DNA of 64,000 nucleotides from Gemmatimonadota bacterium (GCA_035708865.1 DASTFF010000034.1:15529-79528), one strand, 5' to 3'; shown: positions 6,947 to 45,333, counted from the stretch's first letter. The notes: generated from the sequence alone by a model not told the origin. A program made the numbers and translations.

Positions 6947-7083
6947 GGGCGGCGGCAAGACCTCCGCCGGAGGCGAGAGCGCGCTCGTGCGAAACTCCGC
7001 TCCATGCCGCTTTGCGTGGGGCCGGGGCGGGATGACAGGGGGGGTAACTTGACGCCTCCGGCGGAGGCCTTGCCGCCCGCCCC
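6947..7083. repeat. long-stem palindromic element, copy A (arms 6947-6975 and 7053-7082/3, spacer about 77 nt)
   Basis: The arms gggcggcggcaagacctccgccggaggcg and cgcctccggcggaggccttgccgcccgccc are reverse complements with 1 mismatch and 1 indel. The element lies between the convergent kinase and GST stop codons. Its core resembles the elements at 43823 and 44073. Confidence 0.7.
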
Positions 7084-7102: not shown

Positions 7103-7729
7103 TTACAGCTTGGTGTCGTGCGCGAGCACGCGGTCGATCCAGGCCTCGACCGCGGGGCGGTCGCCGTCGAGGGCCAGGTGGTCGGCGCAGAAGCGCCAGA
7201 GGGGGGACTGCTCCACGAACTTGGCCGGCGGGCGGGACGGGAGCAGGTTGCAGGCGAGGATGACGTCGTACATCGACATCGCGCCGCCGACCAGCCATGG
7301 AGCGGCGGCCAGCCGGGCGTCCAGGCGCTCGAGGGCGCCGATCAGGCTCGCCCGCTGGGCGGCGATACGGTCCAGGGCGGGCTCCGGCTTCCGCATTTCG
7401 TCCTCGACGCTCCACTGGATCCGCAGTACCTCGGGGTTCAGCCGGCCGAGCAGGGCCTCGGCGGAACGCAGGTCGTCCCGTGAGGTGGGTGTCAGGCTCG
7501 GCCGGTCCCGGTAGTTGGACTCCAGATAGTGGAGGATCGCCGCCGAATCGCGCATGACCACCTCGCCGTCCAGCAGGATCGGAACCAGCGGCCACCCCGC
7601 GGCCTCGATCATGGGTCCGCGATCGGCCGCCATCATCTCGCGGATCTCGTACTCGAGGCCCTTGTAACCCAGGGCCACCCGGACCTTGACCGAGTTGGGC
7701 GAGCGGTGGAACTCGAGCAGCGTGCGCAT
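7103..7729 (-). CDS. glutathione S-transferase family protein
   Basis: N-terminal thioredoxin-like GST pattern (LEFHRSPNSVKVRVALGYKGLEYE ... PILLDGE) and about 208 aa in length. Confidence 0.75.
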   Translation of the reverse strand: MRTLLEFHRSPNSVKVRVALGYKGLEYEIREMMAADRGPMIEAAGWPLVPILLDGEVVMRDSAAILHYLESNYRDRPSLTPTSRDDLRSAEALLGRLNPEVLRIQWSVEDEMRKPEPALDRIAAQRASLIGALERLDARLAAAPWLVGGAMSMYDVILACNLLPSRPPAKFVEQSPLWRFCADHLALDGDRPAVEAWIDRVLAHDTKL

Positions 7730-10974: not shown

Positions 10975-12189
10975 CTAGAGGAGGTGGAGGGCCACCTGGC
11001 TCAGGAGCCAGGCGCAGGTGAGGCCCGCATAGATCCCGATCACGTAGCCGACCACCGCCATCAGCACGCCGACCGGCGCCATCGCGGGGTGGTAGACCCC
11101 GGCCACGACGGGAGCGCTCGCCGCGCCACCGACGTTGGCCATCGACCCGGTGGCCAAGAAGAACAAAGGCGCCCGTATCCAGCGCGCGACGAGCAGGAGA
11201 AGCCCCGCGTGGACGGTGATCCAGAGCGCCCCCGCGGCCATGAACAGTGGCGCCTCGACGATCGCCTTGAGGTCGCCGCGGGCCCCGATCGAGGTGACCA
11301 GCAGGTAGAGGGCGACGGTCCCCACCCGCGAGGCGCCGGCGCCCTCGAGCCGGTTCAGCGGGGTGAAGGACAGCCCGAGCCCGATCGTCGTCACGAGCAC
11401 CACGGCCCAGGTCGTGTGGCTGATGATCTGGGGATCGCCCAGCTCCGGCAACCGGTCTCCCACAACCCGGCACAGGTACGCCCCCGCGAAGCCGAGGCCC
11501 AGGATCATTCCCAGGTCTCGGACCGTGATCGGCCGGCGGATCTCTTCGTACTTGACGGCCAGCGCCGCGTTGGTCTCCTCGATCAGCCGGGTGTCGGCCC
11601 GGTTCCAGCGATCGAAGCGGGCCTGGTAGGCGGAGAGGAAGAGGAGGACCCCCATCCAGCCGTAGCCGACCAGCGTGTCGACGACGATGATGGGGCCCAG
11701 CATGGCGTCGGGCGTCCCCACCGACTCGGCAACCGCGACCAGCTGGGCCGAGCCGCCGATCCACGAGCCCGACAGGGCCGCCAGCCCCTGCCAGGCATCC
11801 GGCGGAAGCCAGCGGCCGAAGACGGCCAGCGCCAGGGGTCCGCCGAGAACGATCCCGACCGTACCGGCCAGCATCATGATCAGGGCCGGGCGGCCGAGCT
11901 TCAGGACCGCCGGCAGGTCGACCGTCACCATGAGGAGGACCAGGGCCACGAGCAGCAGATAGCGCACGGTCCAGTCGTACGCCGCCGACTCGACGGGGAT
12001 GATCCCGAGCGTCGTGGAGACCATCGGCAGGAAGTACGCCCACAGGATGGCCGGGGTGAACTCGAACAGCCGCCGGAAGGCAGGCACCCCCGAGAGCCAG
12101 ACGATGATCCCCAGCAGCGACGCCAGGTAGACGAAGACCCCGGTGGGGTCGACGATCCACGTCCCGTCCTGCGCGCCGGGCTGGATCAC
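10975..12189 (-). CDS. multi-pass membrane protein (DUF819-like)
   Basis: About 10 predicted TM segments. The likely start is GTG 12189 (VIQPGAQDGTW...), in a GTGA overlap with a small upstream ORF. The first 39 codons of the track ORF (from 12306) are Arg/Gly/Pro junk. Confidence 0.65.
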   Translation of the reverse strand: MIQPGAQDGTWIVDPTGVFVYLASLLGIIVWLSGVPAFRRLFEFTPAILWAYFLPMVSTTLGIIPVESAAYDWTVRYLLLVALVLLMVTVDLPAVLKLGRPALIMMLAGTVGIVLGGPLALAVFGRWLPPDAWQGLAALSGSWIGGSAQLVAVAESVGTPDAMLGPIIVVDTLVGYGWMGVLLFLSAYQARFDRWNRADTRLIEETNAALAVKYEEIRRPITVRDLGMILGLGFAGAYLCRVVGDRLPELGDPQIISHTTWAVVLVTTIGLGLSFTPLNRLEGAGASRVGTVALYLLVTSIGARGDLKAIVEAPLFMAAGALWITVHAGLLLLVARWIRAPLFFLATGSMANVGGAASAPVVAGVYHPAMAPVGVLMAVVGYVIGIYAGLTCAWLLSQVALHLL

Positions 12190-17542: not shown

Positions 17543-17702
17543 GCGCGGCCGCCTCCGCGGGATCCCCGTCCGGCGGACGGGGGGTCGGCGTCCCAGGCCT
17601 TCCCTGGCTGTACTTCTCCTCCACGATTTCCCGAATCCTGGAGAGCGGAACGCCGGCCTCGAACTGAGTCTTCGCCTCCCGGGCGACGTCGATACAGATG
17701 TC
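17529..17702 (-). other. in-frame continuation of the PCYCGC gene past TGA 17705-17703 (Sec recoding candidate or pseudogene tail)
   Basis: The same frame reads DICIDVAREAKTQFEAGVPLSRIREIVEEKYSQGRPGTPTPRPPDGDPAEAAAPSAG and then TGA. This looks like the family C-terminus. A hairpin at 17690-17668 has apical loop CGGGA. Confidence 0.5.
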
Positions 17703-19987: not shown

Positions 19988-20089
19988 CTAGCGCGGGCCT
20001 CCGCCGCGCGGGGCGCCGAGAAAGAACCAAAGCTCGAAGGCGATCAGGACGACTCCGCCGAGGAGGACGCCCCACTCGGCCGGCGTCAT
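19988..20089 (-). CDS. possible 33-aa single-TM peptide coupled to copA
   Basis: [33 protein letters not shown]. Its ATG is in an ATGA overlap with the copA stop. Confidence 0.35.
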
Positions 20090-22605
20090 GCCGTCCTCGC
20101 GCCGGCCAGCCCGACCGTCCTGAGCCGCAGCGAGTTCCCCATCACGAAGATGTCCGAGAGGACCATCGCCAGGGCGCCGACCCACGGCGCCATCAAGAGT
20201 CCCGTCCACGGATAGAGCACTCCGGCGGCGATCGGTATCCCCAGCACGTTGTAGACGAACGCCCAGAAGAGGTTCTGGCGGATCGTCCGCATGGTCTTGC
20301 GGGAGAGTGAGATCGCCTGGACGACGCCGCGCAGGTCGGCCCTGACCAGGGTGATGTCGGCCGACTCGATGGCGACGTCGGTCCCGGTCCCGATCGCGAT
20401 CCCGATGTCGGCCTGGACGAGGGCCGGGGCGTCGTTGACGCCGTCGCCCACCATGGCCACGGCCCGACCCTGCTCCTGGAGGGCGCGGACGCGCTCCTGC
20501 TTCTGGTCGGGGAGCACCTCGGCCAGGACGTGATCGATCCCGACCTCACGGGCGATGGCCTCCGCCGTGCGCGGGTCGTCGCCGGTCATCATGATGACAT
20601 CGAGGCCGCGCGCGCGGAGGGCGGCCACCGCTTCGGCGGATCCCTCCTGGACCGTGTCGGCCACGGCGATCGCCCCGAGCAGGATCCGCTCGCGTGCCAC
20701 GAGTACCGGGGTCTTCCCGGCGTCCGCCAGCCGCCCGACCACGGCCTCGACGCTCTCGCCCCGGAGCTCCGGGAGGTCGATCCCCCGCCCGGCGAGGAGG
20801 CGGCGAGAGCCGATCACGACCTCGGCGCCCGCCACGTACCCCCGGACGCCCTGGCCCGCCAGGGCCTCGAAGTCGGCCGCCGCCGGTCCCCCGGCGCCGC
20901 GCCTCTCGGCCGCCCGGACGATGGCCTCGCCGATGGGATGCTCGGAGCCCCTCTCGACGGCGGCGGCCAGCGCCAGGAGCTCGGCTTCGTCCACGCTGGC
21001 TGCCGGGAGGACATCGGTCACGGCGGGCTCGCCGCGGGTGACCGTCCCGGTCTTGTCGAGCACGACCGTGTCCAGCTCGTGGGCCTTCTGCAGGCTCTCG
21101 GCGTCCTTGATCAGGATCCCCATTTCGGCCCCGCGGCCGGTCCCCACCATGACGGCCGTGGGGGTGGCGAGCCCGAGCGCGCATGGGCAGGCGATGATGA
21201 GGACCGCGACGGCGGTCACGACCGCGTAGGTCAGCGAGGGTGCCGGCCCCGCCACGAACCAGACTACGAAGGTGGCGATCGCGATCGCGATGACGATCGG
21301 GACGAAGTAGGCGGCCACGGTGTCGGCCAGGCGCTGGACCGGCGCCTTCGAGGCCTGTGCGTCCCGGACCAGGCGCACGATCTGGGCGAGCGCGGTCTCG
21401 GCCCCCACCTTCTCGGCCCCGAAGACGATCCGTCCGGCGCGGTTCATCGTTCCGCCCACGACCCCGTCGCCGGGGGCCTTCTCGACCGGCATCGACTCGC
21501 CGGTCAGCATCGACTCGTCGATCGTGGTCCGCCCCTCCAGCACCCGGCCGTCGACCGGGATCCGCTCGCCGGGCCGCACCACGACTTGGTCGCCGGCCTC
21601 GATCTCCTCGACGTCGACCTCGAGCTCGCGGCCCTGCCGGAGGATCCGGGCCGTCCCCGGCTGGAGGTCGAGGAGCGCGCGAATGGCCTCGCCCGTTCGG
21701 CCGCGGGCCCGCTGCTCGAGCCAGGTGCCGAGGAGGATCAGGGTGACGATTGTGGCGGCGGCCTCGAAGTACACGGTCGGCCGGATTCCCGCCGCGAGGA
21801 AGAGGCCGGGGGCGACCGTCGCGACGGCGCTGTAGGCGTACGCGGTCCCCGTCCCCGTCGCGATCAGGGTGTTCATGTCGGCGACACGGTGGCGGAGCCC
21901 GTTCCAGGCCCCGCGGAAGAAGCGCTGGCCGCTGTAGAGAACGACGGGGGTCGCAAGGCCGAGCTGGATCCACGGGTCGAGCATCGGCCAGCCGAGATGG
22001 AGCCCCAGCGGCGACAGAAGGTGCGGGATCATCTCGAAGACGACGAGCGGCGCCGTAAGCGCGGCGGCGACCCAGAACCGCCGCCCCAGGCGCCTCTCCT
22101 CACGGGCCCGCTCTTCGCGCCGGGCCGCCTCTTCACGGCCGGCTCCGGTGACGGGGGAGGCGTCGTAGCCCGCTCGCCGTACGGCTTCGACGAGGTCCCG
22201 CGCCCGTACGGTCCCGGGGATCACGCGCACGAGCGCCGATTCGCCCGCCAGGTTGACCGCCGCTCCGGTCACGCCGGGAACGGCCGCCAGCTCGGACTCC
22301 ACCCGGGCCACGCACGAGGCGCAGTGCATTCCCTCGACGGCGAGTTCGATCTCGCGCTCCTGGACCCCGTACCCTGCCCTCTCGACGGCCTCGACCAGCG
22401 CCTTCGGATCCGCAGCGCCCTCCACGGACGCCTCGCCCGCGGCGAAGTTCACCGTCGCCGACTCCACGCCCGGCACGTCGCGAAGGGCGCGCTCGACGTT
22501 CGCCGCGCACCCCGCGCATGTCATCCCCTCGACGGGAAGCTCGAGCGTCCGAGTCCCCGGCCGGCCCGTGCCGGCCGCGCGGTCGGCGCTGCGGGTCGTG
22601 CTCAC
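20086..22605 (-). CDS. copA: copper-translocating P1B-type ATPase with two N-terminal HMA domains
   Basis: Contains [12 protein letters not shown] and [12 protein letters not shown] (HMA domains), TGES, CPC ([13 protein letters not shown]), DKTGTVT, SEHP and [13 protein letters not shown] 22605 is in a GTGA overlap with the csoR stop. The track ORF from 23067 is an over-extension. Confidence 0.95.
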
Positions 22606-22910
22606 GGCGTCCTCCGGAACTTCCTCAGGAGCCCCACCACCTCGTCGACCTTGGCGCGGCGCTCCACCCCGTCCTCTCCCTCGAGCGCCTCGGCAACGCA
22701 GTGGTTCAGGTGGGCCTCCAGGATCTGGTCCTGAACCCGCGCCAGAGCCGAAGTGATGGCGTCGATCTGGGTCAGGACGTCGACGCAGTAGCGACCCTCC
22801 TGGAGCATCTTCTGAACGCCCCGCACCTGACCCTCGATCCTCTTGAGGCGGTTCTCGAGGCCGGGTTTGACCCGGCCTTGCTCGTACCCGCGGGCCGCGC
22901 GCTCGATCAT
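22602..22910 (-). CDS. csoR: CsoR-family copper-sensing repressor
   Basis: Contains [26 protein letters not shown]...HLNHCV (the C-H-C Cu(I) ligand pattern). ATG 22910. Confidence 0.9.
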
Positions 22911-22918
22911 TTCTCCAG

Positions 22919-22937
22919 TATACCCTGGTAGGGTATA
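22919..22937. promoter_or_regulatory. CsoR-type operator palindrome in the csoR / cytochrome c divergent region
   Basis: TATACCC-TGGTA-GGGTATA lies 9 nt upstream of the csoR ATG. It matches the GC-tract-flanked TACCC...GGGTA style of CsoR boxes. Confidence 0.6.
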
Positions 22938-23044
22938 TAGGAGCAACCGCGTCCCCCCGCCGCGGGGTGCCGGCCGCGGCGGGTTCTTCGGCGGCTGCAG
23001 GAACCGGCTCGCGGTCACGTATGCCCCCTCGTATCTTGCGGGCC

Positions 23045-23659
23045 ATGCCTGAGCCCCATGAGGCCATCTCCAGCCGAACCGCCGCTCGCGGGAGCCGCGG
23101 AGGCTGCCTGTCCAGCCTGTCCCTCGCCCTGGTCCTGGTGGCCGCGGGGGGTCTGGCCCTCGTCTACTCGGGCGTCTACGACGTGGCCGCCACCCAGCCC
23201 CACTCCCGCGCCGCGCGCTGGGTCCTGGGGACCCTCATGGAGCGCTCGGTGAGGTCGCGTGCGGGCGACGTCCCGGTACCCCCGGCGGAGAGCGAGGAGC
23301 TCCTGGCCATGGGATTCCATCACTACGACGAGATGTGCGCGGTCTGCCACGGTGCGCCGGGGGTCGAGCGGGGCGAGATCGGCGAGGGGATGGAGCCCGA
23401 GCCCCCCGCCCTCGCGGAGGAGGCGGGGGAATGGACCCTTCCCGAGATCTTCTGGATCACCAGCCAGGGGATCAAGATGGCCGGGATGCCCGCCTTCAGG
23501 CCCACCCACTCCGAGGAGGAGCTGTGGGGGATCTCGATGTTCGTGAAGCGACTCCCCGAGATGGACGCCGCCGAGTACGCGCGGCTCAGGGAAGAAGCGC
23601 GAGGCGAGGGCGGGGGCGAAAGCAGCGGATCGGTGCCCACACCCACGCATACCCACTGA
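23045..23659 (+). CDS. membrane-anchored c-type cytochrome
   Basis: N-terminal TM segment ([23 protein letters not shown]). Haem motif CAVCHG and a distal Met context ([10 protein letters not shown]). Confidence 0.75.
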
Positions 23660-23704
23660 GCGACCCAGGCCACCGGTTCGGTCGAACGATCGCCTTGGTC
23701 CTCT

Positions 23705-26700
23705 TCACGAAGCGCCTCCCTCGTCGCTGGCAAGCAGAGCCGGAGCGGGCTCGGGAGGCGTACCCGCACGGGCCTCTGCGCGCCGGTGCAACAGCGCCTG
23801 CTGGTAGAGCGACCACACGACCGGGATCACCAACAGCGTGAGCGCAGTGGCGGAGACCATCCCGCCGACCATTGGCGCGGCGATCCGCTTCATCACGCTC
23901 GCTCCCGTGCCGTGGCCCCATAGGATCGGCAAGAGCCCCCCGATCACGGCCGTAGCGGTCATGATCACCGGCCGGAGCCGCTGACCTGCGCCTTCGCGGG
24001 CGGCCCGGAAGACATCCTCGATCCCGCGCAGCTCTCCAGCGCGCTCGAGGCGGTCGTGGGCGTGCCCGAGGTAGACCAGCATCACGACCCCGATCTCCGC
24101 GGCCACCCCCGCCAGGGCGATGAAACCGATCGCCGTGGCCACCGACCAGTTGTAACCCAGAATCGCCATGAACACGACGCCTCCCACGAGCGCGAAGGGC
24201 AGCGACAGCATGACGATCAGGGTTTCCCCGACGCTCCGGAAGTTGAAGTACAGGAGCAGCAGGATGATCAGGAGCGTGGCTGGCACGACCAGCTTCAGCT
24301 TCTCCTTGGCCCGTTGCATGTACTCGTACTGCCCGGACCACTGGAGCGAGTAGCCCGGCGGCAGCGTGACCATGTCGTCGACCATCCGCTTGGCGTCGGC
24401 GACGTAGCCGCCGATGTCGCGGCCCTCGACGTCGACGAACACCCACGCGGTCGGAAACGCGCCTTCGGTCTTGATCGCCATCGGGCCGCTCACCTCGCGG
24501 ATCGTCGCGATCTGGCCGAGCGGGATCTGAGCGGTGCCCGCGGCCATCGCCGCCATGTCCCCTTCCATCCCGCCGCCGGTCATGCCGCCCGTCGGAGCGC
24601 TCCCCGATCCGTCCATGCCGCCGGTTCCGCCGCCGACCGATCCGGATCCCGGAAATCCTCCCCCACCGCTCAGAGCCGTGGCGCCCAGGAGCCCGCCCGA
24701 GGCGCGCCCCTTCCGGACCTGGATCAGCACTTCCTCGAGCTTCTCCGGCTGATCGCGCATTTCGTGCGGATAGCGGAGCCGCACCCCGTACCGCTCGCGA
24801 CCCTCCACGGTCTGGGTGATCGACATCCCCCCGATCGCCGACTGGACCACCGCCTGGACGTCCTCGATGTTGAGGCCGTAACGGGCCGCACCCTCGCGGT
24901 CGAGGTCGATGTCGAGGTAGTAGCCGCTGACCGCGCGCTCGGCGAACACCGAACGGGTGCCCGGGATGCCGCGGATCGCGCTCTCGATCTGGCGGCCGAT
25001 CCGCTCGAGCTCGGCGAGGTCCTCGCCGAAGATCTTGATCCCCACCGGAGTCCGGATGCCGGTGGCGAGCATGTCGATCCGTCCCTTGATCGGCATTGTC
25101 CACGCGTTGGTGAAGCCGGGGAAGGCCACCTTCTCGTCCATTTCCTCGATGAGGCGCTCCATGTTCATCCCCTTGCGCCACTCCTCCTCGGGTTTGAGCG
25201 TGATCGTGGTCTCGAACATGTCGAGCCCCGCCGGATCGGTGGCCGTCGTGGCGCGCCCTGCCTTGCCGAACACGGTCTCGACCTCGGGGATCGAGGCCAG
25301 GATCGAGTCCTGGCGCTGGAGCGCGGCGCTCGCCCGCGAGACGCTGATTCCAGGCAACGTCGTCGGCATGTAGAGGACTGTGCCCTCGTTCAGGGGAGGC
25401 ATGAACTCCGAGCCGATCCGCTGATACGGGATCGCCGTCAGGATCACCACGGCCAGGGCCCCGCCGACGACCGGCCAGCGGTACCGCAGCACGAAATCGA
25501 GGACCGGGCGGTACGCCCGCTCCAGGGTCCGCGCGACCGGATTGGTTCTCTCGGCGTGGATACGACCGCGAACGAACAGCCCCATCGCCACCGGCACGAC
25601 CGTCACCGAGAGCAGGCTCGCCGACGCCATGGCCAGCGTCTTTGTCCACGCCAGCGGCTTGAACAGCCGTCCCTCCTGGGCCTCCAGCGTGAATACGGGC
25701 AGAAAGCTGACCGTGATGATCAGAAGCGAGAAGAAGAGCGCGGGGCCGACTTCCTTCGATGACCGCACGACGATCCCCCATCGCTCCGCGGGCGTGAGCC
25801 GCGAAGTGGAGAGCCTCCCCTTCGCGTCAGCCGCAGCTTCGCCGAGCTTTCGAAGCTTCTCCCCGATCGACTTTTCGAGGTGCTTATGCATGTTCTCGAT
25901 CATCACGATCGCGGCGTCGATCATCGCCCCGATCGCGATCGCGATCCCGCCCAGGCTCATGATGTCCGCCCCGACGCCGAGGAAGCGCATGGCGATGAAC
26001 GCCATCAGGATCCCGAGCGGCAGCGTCAGGATGGCCACCAGGGCGCTCCGGGCATGGAACAGAAATACCAGGCAGACGAGGGCGACCACGATCGTCTCCT
26101 CGAGCAGCTTCTCCTTGAGCGTCCCGATGGCCCGGTGGATGAGCCCCGAGCGGTCGTACACCGGCTTCAGGACCACGCCTTCGGGGAGACCGCTCTCGAT
26201 CTCGGCCAGCTTCGCCTTGACGCGCTCGATCGTCGCCAGCGCATTCTCACCGAAGCGCATGACAACGATCCCGGCTACCACGTCGCCGCGACCGTCCAGA
26301 TCGGCCACGCCGCGCCGGACATCGGGGGCGAGCTGTACGTTGGCCACGTCGGCCACCCGGATCGGGATGCCGGTCTCGGTCGAGCCGACGACGACATTCT
26401 CGAGGTCTTCTATCCCCTGGAGGTACCCCAGGCTCCGGACCATGAACTCGCGCTCGGAGAGCTCGACCATCATCGCCCCCACGTCCTCGTTCGAGGCGCG
26501 GATCGCGGACATGACCTTCGTGACGCCGGTCCCGTAGCCCCGCAGCTTCATCGGGTCCACGGTCACCTCGTACATCCGTTCGAAACCCCCCACCGAGGCG
26601 ACCTCGCTCACCCCGGGAACAGCGGTCAGCTGATACCGGAGGTACCAGTCCTGGATCGAGCGCAGGTCCGCGAGATCACGGGCGCCGGTCGTGTCGACCA

Positions 26701-27130
26701 GGACGTACTGGTAGATCCATCCGAGCCCCGTGGCATCGGGCCCGAGCGCAGTCTCGGCGGCCGGCGGCAGCTTGCTGCGGATCGCCGACAGGTACTCCAG
26801 CACTCGGCTCCGGGCCCAGTAGAGATCGACACCATCCTCGAAGATCACGTAGACGAACGAGACCCCGAAGAAGGAGTATCCGCGCACCGTCTGAGCCCCG
26901 GGCACCTTCAGCATCTCGGAGGCGATGGGATAGGTGACCTGGTCCTCCACGATCATGGGGGCCTGGCCCGCATAGTCGGTCTGGACGATCACCTGGACGT
27001 CGGAGAGGTCGGGGAGCGCCTCGAGCGGCATGTCGCGCATGACCAGGATCCCGGCGGCGACCACGAAGGCCGCCAAGACGATGACGATCAACCTGTTGGA
27101 AACCGACCACTCGATGATTCGGGGCAGCAT
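23705..27130 (-). CDS. cusA: CusA/CzcA-family heavy-metal efflux RND transporter (with 57-aa Gly/Met insertion)
   Basis: 1141 aa with full-length RND/HME pattern (N-terminal MLPRIIEWSV.NR, 12 TM segments). It sits in a cusC-cusB-cusA arrangement. Confidence 0.95.
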   Translation of the reverse strand: MLPRIIEWSVSNRLIVIVLAAFVVAAGILVMRDMPLEALPDLSDVQVIVQTDYAGQAPMIVEDQVTYPIASEMLKVPGAQTVRGYSFFGVSFVYVIFEDGVDLYWARSRVLEYLSAIRSKLPPAAETALGPDATGLGWIYQYVLVDTTGARDLADLRSIQDWYLRYQLTAVPGVSEVASVGGFERMYEVTVDPMKLRGYGTGVTKVMSAIRASNEDVGAMMVELSEREFMVRSLGYLQGIEDLENVVVGSTETGIPIRVADVANVQLAPDVRRGVADLDGRGDVVAGIVVMRFGENALATIERVKAKLAEIESGLPEGVVLKPVYDRSGLIHRAIGTLKEKLLEETIVVALVCLVFLFHARSALVAILTLPLGILMAFIAMRFLGVGADIMSLGGIAIAIGAMIDAAIVMIENMHKHLEKSIGEKLRKLGEAAADAKGRLSTSRLTPAERWGIVVRSSKEVGPALFFSLLIITVSFLPVFTLEAQEGRLFKPLAWTKTLAMASASLLSVTVVPVAMGLFVRGRIHAERTNPVARTLERAYRPVLDFVLRYRWPVVGGALAVVILTAIPYQRIGSEFMPPLNEGTVLYMPTTLPGISVSRASAALQRQDSILASIPEVETVFGKAGRATTATDPAGLDMFETTITLKPEEEWRKGMNMERLIEEMDEKVAFPGFTNAWTMPIKGRIDMLATGIRTPVGIKIFGEDLAELERIGRQIESAIRGIPGTRSVFAERAVSGYYLDIDLDREGAARYGLNIEDVQAVVQSAIGGMSITQTVEGRERYGVRLRYPHEMRDQPEKLEEVLIQVRKGRASGGLLGATALSGGGGFPGSGSVGGGTGGMDGSGSAPTGGMTGGGMEGDMAAMAAGTAQIPLGQIATIREVSGPMAIKTEGAFPTAWVFVDVEGRDIGGYVADAKRMVDDMVTLPPGYSLQWSGQYEYMQRAKEKLKLVVPATLLIILLLLYFNFRSVGETLIVMLSLPFALVGGVVFMAILGYNWSVATAIGFIALAGVAAEIGVVMLVYLGHAHDRLERAGELRGIEDVFRAAREGAGQRLRPVIMTATAVIGGLLPILWGHGTGASVMKRIAAPMVGGMVSATALTLLVIPVVWSLYQQALLHRRAEARAGTPPEPAPALLASDEGGAS

Positions 27131-28314
27131 CAGTCTCCCTCCATCTCCATCCCCGGCATCGCCTCGATCGCCGAGCCCATGCTGCTCTCGGCGTCGATCA
27201 GGAAGTTCGCCGAGGCGACCACCGTCTCACCGGCCTCGAGGCCCGACAGCACCTCGATCTCGCGCCCGGTCACGAGCCCCGTCTCCACCTCGCGGGCGAC
27301 GAGCATCTCGTCGGGGCCCCGGACGAACACCCACGCCCGTTCGCCGGTGGCGTGGACGGCCTCCCGGGGGAGGACGAGCCGCAGCTCGGACGGGACCTCG
27401 AGCGCGACCCGGGCGTACATGCCGGGCTTGAGCTTCCCCTGCAGGTTGGCGAGCTCGACCCGTACGCGACCGGTCCGGGCCTCGAGCGTCACGGTGGGAT
27501 AGACGTACGTGACGGTGCCCGTGAACGTCTCGCCGGGATACGTCTGGACGCTCACCCGGGCGGGCTGACCCTCGCGAACCATCGAGAGATCCCGCTCGAA
27601 CACCTCGCCCTCGACCCACACCGTGGAGAGGTCGGCGATCCGGTAGAGGTTCATCCCGGGGGCGATCCGGCCGCCCTCGAAGACGTTCTTCTCGATGACG
27701 AATCCGGAGGCGGGGGAGGTCAGCGTCAACGTCTTGGTCGGCTGGCCGGTTTCCTCGATCCGCCGGATCTCGCCGGCCGGGATGTCCCAGTACGCGAGCC
27801 GGCGGCGCGAGGCCTCCAGGAGCTGGCGCGCGCGTTCGGCCGCCCGGCCGGCCGGGTCGGCCGCGGACTCGTCGACCAGCCGGCGTGCCAGGATCAGCTC
27901 CTCCTGGGCGGAGACCAGCATCGGGCTATAGACGGCGAGCAGTGGCTGGCCCCGACGCACCGGCATGCCGGTGAAATCCACGTACAGCCGCTCGATCCAG
28001 CCGTCGATCTTCGGGTTGACATCGACGATCCGGGTCTCGTCGTAGGTGACCGTGCCCACGGTCGAGAGCGCGCGGTCGACGACCTTTCGCGCGGCCACCA
28101 CGTACCTGACGCCGATCCGCCGGGCTGCGGCCGCGTCAAGCCGGACGGGATTTCTGTCGTCCCCGCCTCCGCCGGACATGGCCGCGTGATCGTGCCCCTC
28201 CGCGCCGCCTCCGGCCGGAGTCTCGTCGCCGCGACCGAGGCCCGCCAACACCACCACCGCGCCGGCGACGACAACGAGGGCGACGGACACCAGGATCTGC
28301 AATTTCGTGCTCAT
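27130..28314 (-). CDS. cusB: efflux RND periplasmic adaptor (membrane fusion protein)
   Basis: N-terminal anchor and HlyD/CusB-like barrel-sandwich pattern. Has a His/Met-rich N-terminus (GGAEGHDHAAMSGGG) and C-terminus (AMPGMEMEGD). Its stop overlaps the cusA start (TGATG). Confidence 0.9.
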   Translation of the reverse strand: MSTKLQILVSVALVVVAGAVVVLAGLGRGDETPAGGGAEGHDHAAMSGGGGDDRNPVRLDAAAARRIGVRYVVAARKVVDRALSTVGTVTYDETRIVDVNPKIDGWIERLYVDFTGMPVRRGQPLLAVYSPMLVSAQEELILARRLVDESAADPAGRAAERARQLLEASRRRLAYWDIPAGEIRRIEETGQPTKTLTLTSPASGFVIEKNVFEGGRIAPGMNLYRIADLSTVWVEGEVFERDLSMVREGQPARVSVQTYPGETFTGTVTYVYPTVTLEARTGRVRVELANLQGKLKPGMYARVALEVPSELRLVLPREAVHATGERAWVFVRGPDEMLVAREVETGLVTGREIEVLSGLEAGETVVASANFLIDAESSMGSAIEAMPGMEMEGD

Positions 28315-29657
28315 CGGACCTCCGCCAGCATCTCCGGCGTCGGGGGCAGCTCGCGACCGACCGCCGTCTCCAGCCGGGAGATCGCGGTGCCGTACGCGCC
28401 GAGCAGCGCGTAGTGCTCCTGCTCGTATCGGTTGAGCGTCATCTGGGCGTCAACCAGCGTCATGAAGTCGACGCTGCCGACACGATAGGAGGAGAACGAC
28501 GACTCGACGTTCGACTCCGCCTGGGGGATCACGGCGGTCTCGTAGAGATCGAGCAGCGTGCGGGCGCGCTCGAGCTCGGCGAGGAGCTCCCCGATCTCGG
28601 CATCGACGGAGGCGCGCATGCCGGCGAGGTCGGCCTTCGCCATCTGTCGCATCGCGGTCGCCTCGTCGCGCATCTTCAACTGCCGGCCGGCGGCGAAGAT
28701 CGGGATCGAGAAGCCGATCATCGCGCCACCCATCCGCTCGGTCCCCATGCCGAGGTCGCGCTGGCCGTACTGGAGCCCGAGCGCGAGGTCCGGCCACAGT
28801 TCCTTCTTCGCCAGGTCGACCCCGGCGTCGGCCCGCTCGACCCCCGTCTTCGCCTTCTCGAGCATCGGCCGGGTCTCCTCGGCCCAGCTTCGCAGCGTGT
28901 CGCGGGCGGGAACCGCCGCCGGCACCGCCGGCAGGACGGGGGACGGGACCGGCGTCTCCGCGGGCCGGTCGAGGAGCCCGTTCAACCGCGCCGCGGCGAC
29001 CTTACGCATCGCCTCCATCCTGGCGATGTCGGCCTCCATACGGGCGATCTCGACGTTGGCGCGGAGGACGTCGCTCTGCCGTCCCGTGCCGGCGCCGTAC
29101 ATGGCGCGGGCGACCCGTTCGAAGTCCTCCAGCAAGCGCAGGGTCCTCCTCATCACCTCGATCTGACGGTCGGCGGCGTAGAGCTCGTAGAACGCCATCG
29201 CCACGTCAGCGCGGATCATCCACGCCGTCTCGCCGGCGTCGGAGCGCGCCATCTCGCTCGTCTTCCCGGCGATCCGCTCGGAGAGACCCAGCTTGCCGGG
29301 GAAGGGGACCATCTGCATGAGCTGGATCGACGGCGCCATCGACGACGGCATGTCCGCGTCCAGGTCAGGCAGCGACAGGTTCATGGCCCCGATCTGGAAC
29401 ACCGGATCGGGCGGTAACCCCGACGCGGAAACCCTCGCCGCGGAGGCGTCGGCCACGGCGGCAGCCGCGGCGATCCGCGGGTTCCGCTGAGCGGCGAGCG
29501 CGTAGGTCTCCTCGAGCGTCAGCCCCTCGGCGGTCGGGACTTGATCGGAAAGGACGGTGGGCGTCTGCGCCAACGCCCTCGCCGTGAAAAGCAGCGAGGC
29601 CGCGATCAACCGGAGAGCCATTCCGTTCCTGCGGCTCATCGATTTCATGGCATTCAT
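28311..29657 (-). CDS. cusC: TolC-family outer membrane efflux protein
   Basis: Signal peptide (MNAMKSMSRRNGMALRLIAASLLFTARALAQ) and duplicated OEP repeats. ATGA overlap with cusB. ATG 29657 is preferred over 29708. Confidence 0.88.
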   Translation of the reverse strand: MNAMKSMSRRNGMALRLIAASLLFTARALAQTPTVLSDQVPTAEGLTLEETYALAAQRNPRIAAAAAVADASAARVSASGLPPDPVFQIGAMNLSLPDLDADMPSSMAPSIQLMQMVPFPGKLGLSERIAGKTSEMARSDAGETAWMIRADVAMAFYELYAADRQIEVMRRTLRLLEDFERVARAMYGAGTGRQSDVLRANVEIARMEADIARMEAMRKVAAARLNGLLDRPAETPVPSPVLPAVPAAVPARDTLRSWAEETRPMLEKAKTGVERADAGVDLAKKELWPDLALGLQYGQRDLGMGTERMGGAMIGFSIPIFAAGRQLKMRDEATAMRQMAKADLAGMRASVDAEIGELLAELERARTLLDLYETAVIPQAESNVESSFSSYRVGSVDFMTLVDAQMTLNRYEQEHYALLGAYGTAISRLETAVGRELPPTPEMLAEVR

Positions 29658-29734
29658 GGGTGTCCTTCGCGTGCGGATCGAACGGCAGGAGCCCGCTCCG
29701 GGAATCAATACTCCCGAAGACTACGGTCCTCGTT

Positions 29735-29761
29735 CTGAAGCGAAGGTGAAGGGAACGTGAA
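29735..29761 (-). promoter_or_regulatory. three direct repeats at 11-bp spacing upstream of cusCBA (possible OmpR-family binding site)
   Basis: The minus strand reads TTCAC-N6-TTCAC-N6-TTCAG, 78-104 nt upstream of the cusC ATG. Confidence 0.3.
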
Positions 29762-29839
29762 AGGGTCTTTAGTCCTCTTCGGGGTCGCCGGCCTACGCGG
29801 TAGTCTTCGGTGGTCGTTCCTTCAGCTTCATGGGCTCCT

Positions 29840-31257
29840 TCAGGCGGAGAAGAGCGGAAGCCGGAGGACGAATCGAATCCCGCCCCCGGTCCGGTTCTCG
29901 GCCGAGAGCGACCCCTGGTGCAGATCGGCGATCGATCGTGCGATCGCCAGCCCGAGCCCCGCCCCGCCACCGTCGCGCTCGGGCGTTCGGGAGTCGTCGA
30001 CTCGATGGAAGCGCTCGAATATCCGGTCGATCTCACTCTCCGGTATCCCGGGCCCCGTGTCCTCGACCGTCACCCGCCCTGCCTTCTCCTCACGATCCGC
30101 GCGAACGGCCACCCGCCCGCCGCTCGGCGTGTACTTGATGGCGTTCTCGAGCAGGTTGCGGACGAGGCGGTCGAGAAGATCCGGGTCGGCCAGGACCGTG
30201 GGACCATCCTCCGACGCGACCTGGAGATCGAGCCTCTTAGCGTCGGCCATCGACTCCATCCGTCGCACGACGCCGCGGACAGCCTCGCCCAGCTGCACCG
30301 TCTTGAGCCGCGGCTGGATGGCCCGTGCATCCGAACGGGCCAGGGTCAGCAGGTCGTCGGCGGTCCGCGACAGCCGTTCGACCTCTTCGAGCACGCTGTC
30401 GATCACGCGCCGGTATTCCTGGGGACTGCGCTCGCGGCGTCGCGCGAGCTCGAGCTCGCCACGGAGCGCCGTCAGCGGCGAGCGGAGCTCGTGACTGGCG
30501 TCGGCGGTGAACCGGCGCTGCGACTCGAAGGCGGCGTCGAGGCGCTCCAGCATATCGTTCAGGACCTCGACGAGGCGCTGGTACTCCAGGCTGTACGCGT
30601 GGGCGGCGATTCGCCGCTTCAGGGTCCCGGCCCCGATCTCCTCCGCCTGATCGACGATCGCGGTCACGGGGAGGATGGCCTGCCTGGCCAGCCACCACGC
30701 CCCGGCGAAGGCCATGACGGTAGCGACGACCACGATACCCAGAAGCAGGAGACCGGCATCGCGCAGCGTCGCGTTCCTGGATGCCAGCGTCGCCGCCACC
30801 TGGAGCACGTGGGGATCGTGGACCCGGCCCAGCCTTCCGAGGGGGTAGTAGAGAGACAGGATCTCCTCCCCCCCGAACGTCTGCTCCGACCAGGCGATCT
30901 CCCCCTCGCCGGCACGATCCAGCGCGGCACCATCGAGCGGCAGATCCTGGGTGAGGTGCCGGCTGCGCAGCAGGCTCTCGCCGTCGGCCGACCAGACCTG
31001 GGTCCAGCGGTTGATGTCGCGGATGGACGCCGCCTCCTCGGGAGTGATCTCCCACTCCCGGATCCGCATCTGCCCGCCCGGCGGCTCGGTGATCGAGGCC
31101 GCCTGAAGGGAAGCCACGTTGACGAGCGAGGCCTCGATCTGGCGATCGAGCGTGGCCCGAATCGCGAGCCAGGCGAGCAGCGCCATGGCGCCCAGGCCGA
31201 TCGCCATCGCGACCGCAAAACGGCCCGCCAGCGTCAAGCGGAACGGCCGCCCCCCTT

Positions 31258-31261
<4 letters not shown>
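29840..31261 (-). CDS. heavy-metal sensor histidine kinase (CusS-like)
   Basis: Two TM segments flank a periplasmic domain, then HAMP, H-box ASHELRSPLT, and NLLENAIKYTP / DTGPGIP / GLGLAI. ATG 31261 is in an ATGA overlap with the regulator stop. Confidence 0.9.
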
Positions 31262-31938
<677 letters not shown>

Positions 31939-35105: not shown

Positions 35106-35767
35106 TTGACCTCGCGGATCCCCGGCCACCCGTCCGCGCGGCCGTACGCCAGCTCCCAGAAGGCGATCTCGTAGCGGACGGTTGTCGCAAAGAGCTCGGC
35201 CATGCGCGCCCGCTCGCCGGCGCCGGCCTCGTCGCCCAGCCGGTCCAGCTCGCCCGTAAGCCATGCCACCCAGCCGGCGAAGGCGTCTCCGGCCCAGTTC
35301 TCGACGAAACCGATCCACGGCGAGGCGGAGTCGATGCCGGACCTGACCGCCTTCCAGGAGTCGTGGTACGCCTTCTCGGCCGCGTAGAGGACGGTGAAAC
35401 CCTCTTGGTACGGCGCCAGCGCGCCGGTGGCGAGGAGGAACTGCACGTAGGCGTGGCAGATGAAGGACGGCCGGACATCCTCGAGGTCCACGCCGGAAGC
35501 CTGGGCCCGCTCGCGGAACAGGCCGAGCTCTCCGTGGAAGGCGGTGATCGCTTCGGCAAGGGGCTTCCGGTGCGCGACGGGCGCCTTGGCGAGCAGAGAC
35601 CCCATGAACGGGATCGCGGCTTCCACGAACAGGTAGTCCTGACGCATCCAGCGGGCGAACGTGGCGTCGGGCAGCTTGCCATCCCTGGTGTCGTGGAGGA
35701 AAGGGTGGTTCAGCATCTCGTTCCAGAGCGGCCGCTCCCGAGCGAGCAGTTCGGTGGAAATCCCCAC
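35102..35767 (-). CDS. tenA: TenA/thiaminase II family protein (copy 1)
   Basis: Contains PLWNEMLNHPFLHDTRDGKLPDATFARWMRQDYLFV. GTG start with RBS gggagga. It sits directly behind a TPP riboswitch. Confidence 0.85.
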   Translation of the reverse strand: MGISTELLARERPLWNEMLNHPFLHDTRDGKLPDATFARWMRQDYLFVEAAIPFMGSLLAKAPVAHRKPLAEAITAFHGELGLFRERAQASGVDLEDVRPSFICHAYVQFLLATGALAPYQEGFTVLYAAEKAYHDSWKAVRSGIDSASPWIGFVENWAGDAFAGWVAWLTGELDRLGDEAGAGERARMAELFATTVRYEIAFWELAYGRADGWPGIREVK

Positions 35768-35771
35768 TTCA

Positions 35772-35858
35772 TCCTCCCTTCGCCGGCATTATCCGGATCA
35801 GGTGTTGAGGGTGTCATCTCAGCCGGGATGGATCCCAGCACCCCTGGTGCCGCCAGTA
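35772..35858 (-). promoter_or_regulatory. TPP (THI-box) riboswitch
   Basis: The minus strand reads ...CCAGGGGUGCUGGGAUCCAUCCCGGCUGAGAUGACACCCUCAACACCUGAUCCGGAUAAUGCCGGCGAAGGGAGG. It contains the GGGGUGC, GCUGAGA, ACCC and ACCUGAUC.GGAUAAUGCC.GCG signatures and ends in the tenA Shine-Dalgarno sequence. Confidence 0.9.
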
Positions 35859-42154: not shown

Positions 42155-42304
42155 ATGGCTGCTATGGCCAAGAAGTCGACCAGAAAGAAGGCCTCGAAGA
42201 AGAAGGCCAAGAAGAAGGGAAGGAAGAAGGCTTCACGGAAGAAGGCCTCGAAAAAGAAGGCCTCGAAGAAGAGAAAGGCTTCACGGAAGAAGAAGCGGAA
42301 GTAA
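42155..42304 (+). CDS. 49-aa Lys-rich, histone H1-like basic protein
   Basis: MAAMAKKSTRKKASKKKAKKKGRKKASRKKASKKKASKKRKASRKKKRK has 24 Lys, 6 Arg and no acidic residues. Strong RBS. The DNA shows internal repeats (gaagaaggcctcgaa x3). Confidence 0.6.
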   Translation: MAAMAKKSTRKKASKKKAKKKGRKKASRKKASKKKASKKRKASRKKKRK

Positions 42305-42390: not shown

Positions 42391-43815
42391 GTGGTCGCCC
42401 TTCTGTTCCCGGTCGCCTGCGCCTCCGCCGCGCGGGGCGCGGGCGGGGCCCGGCTCTCCGACACGCTCTCCCGGCTGCTCGCCGATCCGAGCCTGCGGCA
42501 TTCGGGCGCGGCCCTGCTGGTGGTTTCCCTCGACAGCGGGGATACGCTGTACGCGCGCGAGATCGACCGGCTCTACACCCCCGCCTCGAACCTCAAGCTG
42601 TTCACCGCCGCCTCGGCCCTCCACTACCTGGGACCCGACTTTCGTTTCGAGACCATGGTCGCGACAGGCGGACGGTGGACGGGCGACACGCTTCACGGAG
42701 ACCTGTATCTGGTCGGCCGTGGCGATCCCGATCTGGTGACCGACGATCTCGCCGTGCTGGCCGACAGCGTCGCGGCGGCGGGCGTGCGGGTCGTTCGCGG
42801 ACGGGTGGTCCCCGTCGCCGACTGGTTCGGCGGACCGGAGTGGGGGGCCGGTTGGATGTGGGATGACGGACCGTTCTGGTACTGGCCCTACACGAGCGCG
42901 CTCACGCTGAACGACAACTCGGTGACCGTGCGGGTGACTCCGGGTCCCGAGGTGGGCGCCCCGGTCGACGCGAGCCTCGAACCGGCGACCGACTACGTGC
43001 GGCTGACCGTCGATGCCCGCACCGGCCCGACGGGCTCTCCGCCGACGCTCGAGGTCGAGCGGCATTGGGACCCCAAGGCCAACGTCATCGACGTTCGGGG
43101 CTCACTACCTCTCGACGCCGGGCCGGTCGCCGAGGTGCGGACGGTCGAGGACCCGGCGTCCTACGCGGCACGGGTCTTTACCCAGCTCCTGTCCGAGCGG
43201 GGTGTCGACGTCCTCGACGCGCTCGGCGAGGGTCTGCAACCGCCACCCGACACGATCCCGATCGTGCGCCATGAGAGCGACTCGCTGGCGGTGAGCGTCC
43301 GGAACTTCCTCAAGGTCAGCGACAACCTGACCGGCGAGCAGCTGGTGAAGGCGATCGGCGCGCGGACCGCCGGGCCGCCAGGCAACTACGCCAACGGCCT
43401 GGCGGCCGAGCGGCGTTTCCTGGCCGCCGAGGTGGGGATCGACACCACCGCCATGGTGCTCGCCGACGGCTCGGGCGTGTCGCGCTACAACCTGGTCACT
43501 GCGCGACAGGTGGTCCGTCTGCTCGCCTACATGGCCGGCCGCGACGATCTGGCGCCGGCCTTCTTCGGCGCCCTGCCGATCGCCGGCGTGGACGGAACCC
43601 TCGAGGACCGGATGCGGGGAACCGCCGCCGAGCGCGCGGTCCGCGCCAAGACGGGATCGCTGGCGGGCGTCTCCGCGCTGGCGGGCTACACGATGACGGC
43701 CGGCGGCGAGCGCCTCGCCTTCAGCCTCATGATGGAGTTCTTCCCGGGAGCGGCCGCGCCGCGGCGGGCGGTCCAAGATTCGATCATGGCGGCGCTGGCG
43801 GGGATGCGGGAGTAG
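42391..43815 (+). CDS. dacB: D-alanyl-D-alanine carboxypeptidase/endopeptidase (PBP4, peptidase S13)
   Basis: Contains SxxK (PASNLKL), SDN (VSDNLTG) and KTG (AKTGSLAGV). The start is uncertain: GTG 42391, TTG 42388 or in-frame CTG 42325. The track ORF from 41692 is an over-extension. Confidence 0.85.
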   Translation: MVALLFPVACASAARGAGGARLSDTLSRLLADPSLRHSGAALLVVSLDSGDTLYAREIDRLYTPASNLKLFTAASALHYLGPDFRFETMVATGGRWTGDTLHGDLYLVGRGDPDLVTDDLAVLADSVAAAGVRVVRGRVVPVADWFGGPEWGAGWMWDDGPFWYWPYTSALTLNDNSVTVRVTPGPEVGAPVDASLEPATDYVRLTVDARTGPTGSPPTLEVERHWDPKANVIDVRGSLPLDAGPVAEVRTVEDPASYAARVFTQLLSERGVDVLDALGEGLQPPPDTIPIVRHESDSLAVSVRNFLKVSDNLTGEQLVKAIGARTAGPPGNYANGLAAERRFLAAEVGIDTTAMVLADGSGVSRYNLVTARQVVRLLAYMAGRDDLAPAFFGALPIAGVDGTLEDRMRGTAAERAVRAKTGSLAGVSALAGYTMTAGGERLAFSLMMEFFPGAAAPRRAVQDSIMAALAGMRE

Positions 43816-43822
43816 TGGAGAA

Positions 43823-43957
43823 GCGGGGGCGGGGGGCGTATTCGCGGAGCGAATCCTCGGGCGGAAGCGCTTCGGAAGGGGGCTGCTCCACGGACCACGT
43901 GCATTCGCTCAAGGATCGAAACTTTGATCGCTCCGCGAACACGCCCCCCGCCCCCGC
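43823..43957. repeat. long-stem palindromic element, copy B (arms 43823-43855 and 43926-43957)
   Basis: gcgggggcggggggcgtattcgcggagcgaatc pairs with gatcgctccgcgaacacgccccccgcccccgc (1 mismatch, 1 bulge). The spacer is 70 nt. It starts 8 nt after the dacB stop. Confidence 0.75.
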
Positions 43958-44072
43958 GCCACCGTCACTCCAAACCCGCGCCAGTCAACGCGCATTGCTC
44001 CGGCAAAAGACCTACGGGACGCCTTGGTTCAAAAGGGGGCGATGTCGCTCCCTTGTTCGTACGCCGCTGAGG

Positions 44073-44209
44073 GGCGGGCTCGGCGGGGGTCCTCCCGGAG
44101 CCGTCAAAGTTTGGCTCCGGCGCAAGCATGCCCGCGGTTCGTGGAGCGACGAATCCCCTCCGATCGAGCGCCCGGCGTCGGCTCCGGGAGGACCCCCGCC
44201 GAGCCCGCC
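44073..44209. repeat. long-stem palindromic element, copy C (perfect 31-bp arms 44073-44103 and 44179-44209)
   Basis: ggcgggctcggcgggggtcctcccggagccg and its exact reverse complement are separated by 75 nt. The core is homologous to copy B in inverted orientation. It ends 2 nt from the stop of the 44212 gene. Confidence 0.8.
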
Positions 44210-44211
44210 GA

Positions 44212-45333
44212 TCACCGACTCTCAGAGGAAGGAAGCGACACCGCGCCCGCCCCCGTCGCCTGGAGCCCCACAGGGATCGAGCGGATGGTCGCCAGCGTCT
44301 CGGGGTCGATGACGTCGATGGCGCCCGGCACGACGGCGTGGCTCTCCATCGACAGGAAGACCGTGCCGTCCGGCCCGAAGGCGAAGGTGTGGGGATGGGT
44401 AGCGCTCGACGGCATCGTGGCAACGGGGGATTCAGTCGCCAGATCGACCACCGTGAACGACTGGCCGTTCCGGTTGGGCACGTACAGCCGCCCGCCCGCC
44501 GGATCCACCTTGATCAGGTAGGGGCCGTCGCCGACCGGAATGCTGTTGGTGTAGGTGCCGAGCTCGGACGTGGCCATGACGCGCACCTCGCCAGTCTTGT
44601 GGCACGCCACGTAGAGCTTCTCATCGTCCTTCGACAGCGCGAGGCCGGCCGGGTAACACACCTTCTCCTCGGCCCGGTCCTGGTCGGTGAGGGTGCTGGT
44701 CGAGTCGACCACCGACAGCGTCGAAACGCTGACCTTCCTGAGCTCATTGTCGCGCGTGCACGAGACGTAAACCGACGTCCCGTCGTGCGAGGCCACCAGG
44801 CCGTGCGGCTTCACGCAGACCGGGATCTGCTTGACCTCGGTCATGGTCGGGGCGTGCACGACCGAGACGGTGTCGGTCTGAGGGTCGCCGTGCAGGTTGT
44901 AGTTGGCCACGAAGAGCCACATGCCGTCCGGCGTGATCGCCGACGTCGCAGGAAACAGTCCGACGTTGGTCCGGGCCACCAGGCTGTCCGTGCTGGTCGT
45001 CATCTTCCAGACCGACCCGTAGGGCCAGCCGTGCGCGATCGACAGATAGTAGAACCGGCCGTCGGGCGAGAGAGTGAGCGCGTGAACGCCCTCCACGTCC
45101 TCGATCGACACACCCACCGGGATCTTCCTGAGAACCTCGCCCGTGCCGGGGTCGACAACCGCCACCGCGTCCTCCGACTCGAGGCCGACGAAGAGAACGT
45201 AGCCGGACGGCTCGCCGGACGTGGTCCCGGCCTCCGGGTCGGGTGCGGCCGCGGGCTCCTGGGCCCCGATCGGCAGCGGGTAAGAGAGAAAGGCGGCGCA
45301 TGCCGCCAGGACGATCCTCCAGCGACGGGTCAT
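44212..45333 (-). CDS. secreted YVTN/YncE-like beta-propeller repeat protein
   Basis: Signal peptide MTRRWRIVLAACAAFLSYPLPIGAQE. Contains repeated ~40-aa units (..P.G(L/I)A.S.DG..(L/V)YV(A/S)...). Confidence 0.7.
   Translation of the reverse strand: MTRRWRIVLAACAAFLSYPLPIGAQEPAAAPDPEAGTTSGEPSGYVLFVGLESEDAVAVVDPGTGEVLRKIPVGVSIEDVEGVHALTLSPDGRFYYLSIAHGWPYGSVWKMTTSTDSLVARTNVGLFPATSAITPDGMWLFVANYNLHGDPQTDTVSVVHAPTMTEVKQIPVCVKPHGLVASHDGTSVYVSCTRDNELRKVSVSTLSVVDSTSTLTDQDRAEEKVCYPAGLALSKDDEKLYVACHKTGEVRVMATSELGTYTNSIPVGDGPYLIKVDPAGGRLYVPNRNGQSFTVVDLATESPVATMPSSATHPHTFAFGPDGTVFLSMESHAVVPGAIDVIDPETLATIRSIPVGLQATGAGAVSLPSSESR

Follow-up and report, generated by a model that had tools for sequence, protein, structure and literature searches.

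Two long inverted repeats fill the spacer between the convergent genes dacB and YncE in this uncultured Gemmatimonadota genome, and their arms have changed in sequence between copies while continuing to pair. This raises the question of whether the pairing is kept by selection on a structure, be it an RNA hairpin or a protein-recognised cruciform, or by some other process. We addressed it within the window, by which we mean the whole 64-kb stretch of DNA analysed, and in the corresponding loci of relatives.

Three palindromic elements in convergent spacers

The two inverted-repeat elements described in the original prediction for the dacB/YncE spacer are real, with arms of 30-31 bp around 75-nt cores: element B spans 43823-43957 on the plus strand, and element C spans 44073-44209 as its minus-strand homolog (Table 1). 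They had been called tandem; two homologous elements are indeed present, but they form an inverted pair, B being canonical on the plus strand and C on the minus strand. The B stem has a single mismatch, A(43840).C(43940), its other 29 pairs being Watson-Crick, and what had been taken for an additional bulge is an internal loop beyond which the stem continues weakly into the core. The arms of C are perfect over 31 bp, as reported. Either strand of B or C folds with an energy of -94 to -109 kcal/mol (z of -7.0 to -8.3), and none of 200 shuffles did as well. The proposed homology of the cores is borne out once C is reverse-complemented: the two elements align with a core identity of 0.65, against a mean of 0.50 and a maximum of 0.59 in shuffles of another core pair, and AAACTTTGA occurs twice in 64 kb, at the equivalent position in B and C, where 0.00 occurrences are expected. 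Both elements also begin within a few nucleotides of a stop codon, with that of dacB (43813-43815) lying 7 nt ahead of B and that of YncE (44212-44214) 2 nt past C.

Table 1. Positions of the elements, of their parts and of the orthologous junctions
Feature	Position	Strand	Remarks
Element B, left arm (stop-codon-proximal, G-rich)	43823-43852	+	29/30 Watson-Crick with 43928-43957
Element B, core (75 nt, non-palindromic)	43853-43927	+	blocks GCTCCACGGACC at 43885-43896 and AAACTTTGA at 43919-43927
Element B, right arm (C-rich)	43928-43957	+	partner of 43823-43852
Spacer between B and C (115 nt)	43958-44072	none	includes 44035-44054, which repeats the end of the YncE coding sequence in inverse orientation
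Element C, arm distal to the YncE stop (canonical right arm)	44073-44103	-	31/31 with 44179-44209
Element C, core (75 nt)	44104-44178	-	AAACTTTGA at 44104-44112, GCTCCACGAACC at 44136-44147; homolog of the B core on the minus strand
Element C, arm adjoining the YncE stop (canonical left arm)	44179-44209	-	perfect, 31/31
Part of the YncE 3' coding end	44229-44248	none	inverted partner of 44035-44054
Element A	6947-7082	+	arms 6947-6975 and 7053-7082 (29 and 30 nt), 77-nt core ending in TAACTTGA
A-locus inversion	L066 10648-10797 versus L064 10652-10798 and window 6947-7082		75-nt core flipped, arms unchanged
dacB/YncE junction, L053			1-bp spacer, no element
dacB/YncE junction, L054			35-bp spacer, no element
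dacB/YncE junction, L060 (YncE 80% identical)			86-bp spacer, no element
dacB/YncE junction, L052			B only
dacB/YncE junction, L061			B present; contig stops just after
dacB/YncE junction, L062 and L063			B and C, positions and orientations as in the window
dacB/YncE junction, L055, L056, L058 and L059			C present, cut by contig end

The labels B and C implied a further copy, and a whole-window inverted-repeat scan located element A at 6947-7082, flanked by a convergent histidine kinase gene (stop 6922-6924) and GST gene (stop 7103-7105). Elements of this kind are non-coding and 135-139 bp long, with G+C-rich inverted arms of 29-31 bp. Among the three copies in 64 kb, the cores are 0.52-0.65 identical and the arms 0.61-0.71 identical to one another; the outer arm ends (GGCGGG) and the inner ends (CGGAG-S-CG) are common to all three, and the arm middles are variable. 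Profile searches gave no link between A-type and B/C-type cores, and it is only the architecture, the junction motif at the same position and the arm ends that suggest kinship of A to B and C.

On a rough gene map, all three copies lie in convergent spacers, of 178 bp and 396 bp, while the other convergent spacers in the window mostly measure ~4-45 bp. The same map gives two further convergent spacers of comparable size, one of 160 bp without an element and one of 564 bp containing a gene that the map missed; the 160-nt convergent spacer at 17543-17702 is free of elements of the A/B/C family. That the elements occur in convergent spacers only is consistent with copies persisting solely at sites where they do not damage a promoter. 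Convergence can also go as far as overlap in this genome, since an esterase gene (plus strand, ending at 46571) and an M23 peptidase gene (minus strand, ending at 46457) share ~115 nt, with the same call in contigs L019-L021.

Comparison with Rfam 15, which had been proposed, was carried out and returned no family for the elements at the gathering threshold. The sole window hit at that threshold was a TPP riboswitch (RF00059, 61.6 bits, 35757-35855, minus strand) upstream of two TENA/THI-4 family genes, and a relaxed scan matched the elements to generic microRNA-precursor hairpins only (18-46 bits, for thresholds of 62-268). Neither a literature search nor Rfam yielded a Gemmatimonadota repeat family of this kind, and blastn gave no match in plasmids or phages. 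Several specific candidates were rejected. An integron attC site is contradicted by the arms, which read GGCGGG...CCCGCC and not RYYYAAC...GTTRRRY, and by flanks that consist of syntenic housekeeping genes with no cassette array. A core-encoded peptide was considered since B and C both carry 25 codons followed by TGA; the peptides are unrelated, the orthologs lose the stop (AACTTGGA), and reading frames across the cores are not conserved in orthologs. The TTGAC at the core junction is not followed by a -10 box, and a promoter scan of the core was empty. Resemblance of GATCGAAACTTTGA to an IHF site was inconsistent across copies.

Two other features of the window were recorded. Between pfkA and dacB, a 49-residue, extremely lysine-rich ORF (MAAMAKKSTRKKASKKKAKKK..., 42155-42304, plus strand) is preceded by an A+T-rich region and a strong ribosome-binding site, and equivalents of 41-54 residues occupy the same place in L054, L060, L062 and L063; the product looks like a small histone-like or nucleic-acid-binding protein. 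A metal-efflux island at 20086-31405, unrelated to elements A, B and C, encodes a P-type ATPase with HMA domains, a tripartite pump resembling CusA, CusB and an outer-membrane factor, and a HAMP histidine kinase.

Filled and empty sites in relatives

The search of relatives suggested by the original prediction recovered orthologs of A, B and C at matching loci, and in each relative the neighbouring housekeeping genes are syntenic. Proteins homologous to those encoded beside the elements are annotated as Gemmatimonadota and come from metagenome-assembled genomes. L064, L065 and L066 all carry an A ortholog at the corresponding place, flanked by the kinase and GST genes. At the dacB/YncE junction, relatives whose YncE is ~73-80% identical have spacers of 1-86 bp and no element, while others carry B, C or both (Table 1). 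Filled and empty orthologous sites, the pattern that serves as a criterion for MITEs, are thus both seen, and the comparison identifies B and C as insertions that were afterwards passed on vertically and probably lost once. Because the ancestral convergent spacer was only 1-86 bp, the closeness of the elements to stop codons is a by-product of insertion into so small a target. The empty sites lack any palindrome of the corresponding type, and we therefore rejected the idea that the 30-bp arms are the two halves of an earlier terminator hairpin into which the core was inserted.

In all orthologs, B and C are each oriented the same way with respect to their neighbouring gene. The DNA between them is less stable: the B-C spacer is 53-55 nt in the relatives and 115 nt in the window, and the spacers of the window and L062 are unalignable (identity 0.38). 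Within the window spacer, 44035-44054 forms a 17/20 inverted match with 44229-44248, so that C is enclosed by a second, larger repeat; 2 of 500 shuffles reached this match. A homologous outer repeat in L062 (~11594-11624; 1 of 500 shuffles) tracks that lineage's own coding sequence, and another is found in L052 (10675-10730; 36 of 500 shuffles), where C is absent. The outer repeat may be an older YncE 3' hairpin into whose loop C was inserted.

With nhmmer and a covariance model, no extra copies beyond the orthologs of A, B and C were found in the 566 kb searched, and none turned up in ~240 kb of the relatives' DNA; the 64 kb of the source genome analysed contains three copies. We also scanned GTDB genomes and JGI metagenomes with the pattern CTCCACG N18-36 AACTTTGA NNN CTCCG. 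This gave scattered matches, one per contig, none of which scored as an element with the profile, and the number in GTDB was close to a rough chance estimate; an improved pattern had 0 matches in viral contigs. The GTDB and JGI scans say little on distribution because the pattern is specific to the window, orthologs reading CCAGGGAC and AACTTGGA instead. Short-read contigs end inside or just after the arms (L019-L022, L055-L059 and L061), and the Logan contigs L019-L022 break in the YncE-side arm of C, right where the perfect 31-bp repeat ends. These breaks are an assembly effect of the palindrome. It follows that the elements break up the metagenome-assembled genomes of this clade where convergent genes meet, and that public data under-represent them.

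Variable presence among relatives is also what would be expected of an ordinary active MITE moved by a terminal-repeat transposase, in which case the arm differences would mark subfamilies and the apparent orthologs would reflect re-insertion or conversion. The constant GGCGGG and CGGAG-S-CG ends around variable middles resemble two-part transposase-binding repeats and would suit such an element. We nevertheless consider this improbable. A consistent direct repeat of at least 3 bp was absent from the boundaries of the ten full copies, whose exact ends are uncertain, and the cores within one genome are only ~65% identical. Moreover, junctions and orientation are common to several lineages, and ortholog divergence tracks that of four-fold sites, as in vertical descent and not as in recent re-insertion. 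The original prediction had already set aside a textbook MITE with identical terminal repeats, and we agree, given that the arms differ between copies and no target-site duplication was found.

Matching of the arms and conservation of the core

That pairing persists under sequence change, as originally claimed, was evident in the alignment of all copies. The ten full copies together have 306 arm positions, of which 286 are Watson-Crick. In the eight full copies tested by shuffling, 89.7% of cells are paired and double changes occur at 15 of 29 arm pairs, a result matched by 0 of 500 shuffles, a test that overstates independence because the ten copies represent three loci in four or five related lineages. 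Sliding the 3' partners by 1-3 columns lowered pairing to 45-53%. The three compensatory inner-arm pairs that had been listed between B and C are correct. Between the window B and that of L061, seven of eight left-arm differences are mirrored, as are all six arm differences between the A copies of L064 and L066. Changes in the C orthologs are mostly uncompensated: L062 has 5 mismatches and L063 has 3, against none in the C of the window. Compensation is therefore episodic, being almost complete in B and A orthologs and nearly absent in C. The degree of matching exceeds what separate descent of the arms would leave: at four-fold degenerate sites in the flanking genes, the identity of the window to these relatives is only 0.57-0.66 (random, 0.41), and so independent decay would have left several mismatches per stem.

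The original prediction took the kept pairing to point to selection on a structured RNA or a cruciform. We do not follow this step, because wobbles are not favoured, compensation is patchy, the core has no conserved fold, and in one relative the core is inverted. In its RNA form, the idea is that a cis-acting terminator, insulator or stabiliser hairpin sits at the 3' ends of the flanking genes with its stem kept by selection. The strong arm covariation speaks for it, as do the orientation of B and C, constant relative to the abutted gene in every ortholog, and the conserved length and motifs of the core. The transcriptional setting also leaves room for such a signal. Hairpin-plus-U terminator-like sites in window positions 1-60000 are not enriched (10, versus ~14 expected from shuffles), none of them lying at a gene end, and most convergent spacers measure only 4-45 bp. 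The host thus probably ends transcription by means other than classical terminators, which makes another 3' end signal plausible. The elements themselves are not intrinsic terminators, in agreement with the original prediction: at 75 nt, the loop far exceeds the usual 3-8 nt, no T run follows the stem, and neither strand offers a U tract. A scan of A, B and C and their borders detected neither a sigma-70-like promoter nor a hairpin-plus-U terminator.

The mismatches, however, speak against it. The 20 imperfect arm positions comprise 3 G.T, 5 A.C, 11 transversion-type mismatches and 1 gap; read on the reverse strand, five of the eight transition-type mismatches would become G.U, yet no preference for wobbles is seen on either strand, and C:G/G:C flips at four pairs have no wobble intermediate. 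A stem of ~-100 kcal/mol is over-stable for RNA function, and selection against single mismatches would be weak, yet the arms are near-perfect; the C orthologs tolerate 3-5 mismatches. Element-free relatives manage with spacers of 1-86 bp, and the evidence from orientation amounts to two independent insertions only. We consider selection on a structured RNA a possible but unlikely cause, which is not favoured over re-matching of the arms at the DNA level. Matched changes in the arms are explained equally well by copying of one arm onto the other as by selection on RNA structure, and strong covariation of a long stem is by itself no proof of the latter.

Core length stays within 74-77 nt throughout the ten full copies, although that of the B-C spacer varies from 53 to 115 nt, and the blocks CCA(C/G)G(G/A)ACC and AAACTT(T/G)GAC are invariant or nearly so in the eight B/C copies. 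Core blocks, including CCAGGGACC and AAACTTKGAC, are conserved without any fold: we found no conserved core fold on either strand, and the RNAalifold consensus energy was no better than that of column shuffles. Ortholog core identity (0.57-0.79) is close to four-fold site identity (0.57-0.75), which neither proves nor excludes selection, so the sequence evidence for constraint is suggestive only. The conserved length and motifs nonetheless suggest some ongoing constraint that homogenisation at the DNA level alone would not explain. The arms of orthologs, 0.68-0.93 identical, are at least as conserved as the cores.

The A core of L066 is reverse-complemented relative to that of L064 and the window and lies between perfect 31/31 arms; the left junction in L066 matches that of L064. 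An inversion between 31-bp repeats could indicate a programmed inverton, and a dedicated protein that recognises a cruciform or DNA site would be compatible with conserved blocks that do not fold. We regard this as highly improbable, since a scan found no sigma-70-like promoter within the elements or beside them, no recombinase gene lies nearby, and B and C have a single orientation in all sampled lineages. One inversion in three lineages is, besides, what template switching or recombination between the arms would be expected to produce.

Proposed origin and comparison with known systems

Template switching between inverted repeats is reported to homogenise their arms and invert the spacer (PMC8604942), and in stems it gives rise to compensatory changes of several bases (PMC8794818). 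An inverted core combined with homogenised arms matches this published signature, and compensatory changes can thereby arise without structural selection (PMC8604942, PMC8794818). On balance, we lean towards the view that A, B and C belong to a lineage-restricted, MITE/REPIN-like family of palindromic insertions in uncultured Gemmatimonadota whose arms are re-matched at the DNA level. The elements would have entered very short convergent spacers in one clade, these being the only intergenic DNA there without promoters, and would then have descended vertically without changing place, a copy being lost now and again. Either gene conversion from arm to arm or template switching during replication would episodically copy one arm onto the other, yielding multi-base changes that look compensatory and now and then flipping the core. 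On read-through from either flanking gene, the arms would fold into a ~30-bp hairpin, which, by analogy with REP, ERIC and Correia elements, probably blocks further transcription and 3' exonucleases. We infer the homogenising mechanism, the mobilising enzyme and this RNA-level effect from the patterns described, and mobility from the presence/absence pattern only. If the hairpins do act as barriers, they would mark the way in which convergent transcription units are kept apart in a compact, high-G+C genome that lacks classical terminators.

A more elaborate scheme would have a dedicated protein, for example a domesticated transposase, bind the fixed-length core with its conserved motifs, maintain perfect arms and from time to time invert or excise the element, with the host using the hairpin as an insulator between convergent genes. 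We think this distinctly unlikely. It would make the elements vertically inherited and actively kept modules instead of decaying junk, place a candidate protein beyond the known range of RAYTs, and assign an insulator role in a phylum lacking classical terminators.

Returning to arms re-matched at the DNA level in an inserted family, four groups of known systems bear comparison. Rho-independent terminators, including the U-tract-less ones proposed for high-G+C bacteria, are likewise G+C-rich hairpins just past the stops of convergent genes; A, B and C differ in that they came in by insertion, as a repeat family whose core is conserved, and they have no U tract.

The likeness to REPIN/REP (BIME)-RAYT systems is closer, since REPINs are ~100-140 bp long and extragenic, with two inverted ends and a spacer of fixed length, are predicted to form a hairpin in single-stranded DNA or mRNA, show compensatory hairpin changes, and persist vertically for long periods (PMC3116915). 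A system of this type, in which the arms act as REP-like single-stranded DNA hairpins and a single-copy domesticated tyrosine (HUH) transposase duplicates or maintains the elements, would accommodate their dimensions, their conserved inverted ends, their vertical persistence at fixed sites and ortholog arms conserved as much as the core or more, and REPINs too show compensatory hairpin changes (PMC3116915; bioRxiv 10.1101/2021.07.10.451892). We judge it improbable all the same. REPINs have an invariant and abundant 16-mer at their ends and a spacer that pairs, whereas the arms here have variable middles and differ strongly between copies of one genome, and the 75-nt core is unpaired and asymmetric. 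The copy density is low, at 3 per 64 kb. The scanned window proteins and the gene lists of the relatives contained no transposase, RAYT (Y1_Tnp, PF01797) or recombinase, and RAYTs are known mainly from Proteobacteria, a different phylum.

Correia elements of Neisseria and the ERIC/IRU MITEs are small, non-coding palindromic insertions in transcribed intergenic DNA, and their long terminal repeats fold in read-through mRNA, with possible effects on termination, RNase processing and mRNA stability. A, B and C resemble them as small palindromic intergenic insertions whose presence varies between relatives. They differ in having no detectable sequence similarity to these families, no TA or other target-site duplication found at their uncertain ends, and non-uniform terminal repeats, and in that the copies are old and diverged instead of near-identical.

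The remaining counterpart is the class of inverted repeats maintained by template switching. Those documented mostly have arms of ~5-20 bp and short spacers, whereas here ~30-bp arms enclose a 75-nt spacer in a multi-copy, inserted family, and the mechanism is a deduction and not an observation. The two nevertheless have in common the homogenisation of arms by simultaneous multi-base changes that include transversions, the inversion of the spacer, and repeats better conserved than their surroundings (PMC8604942, PMC8794818, PMC5941160).
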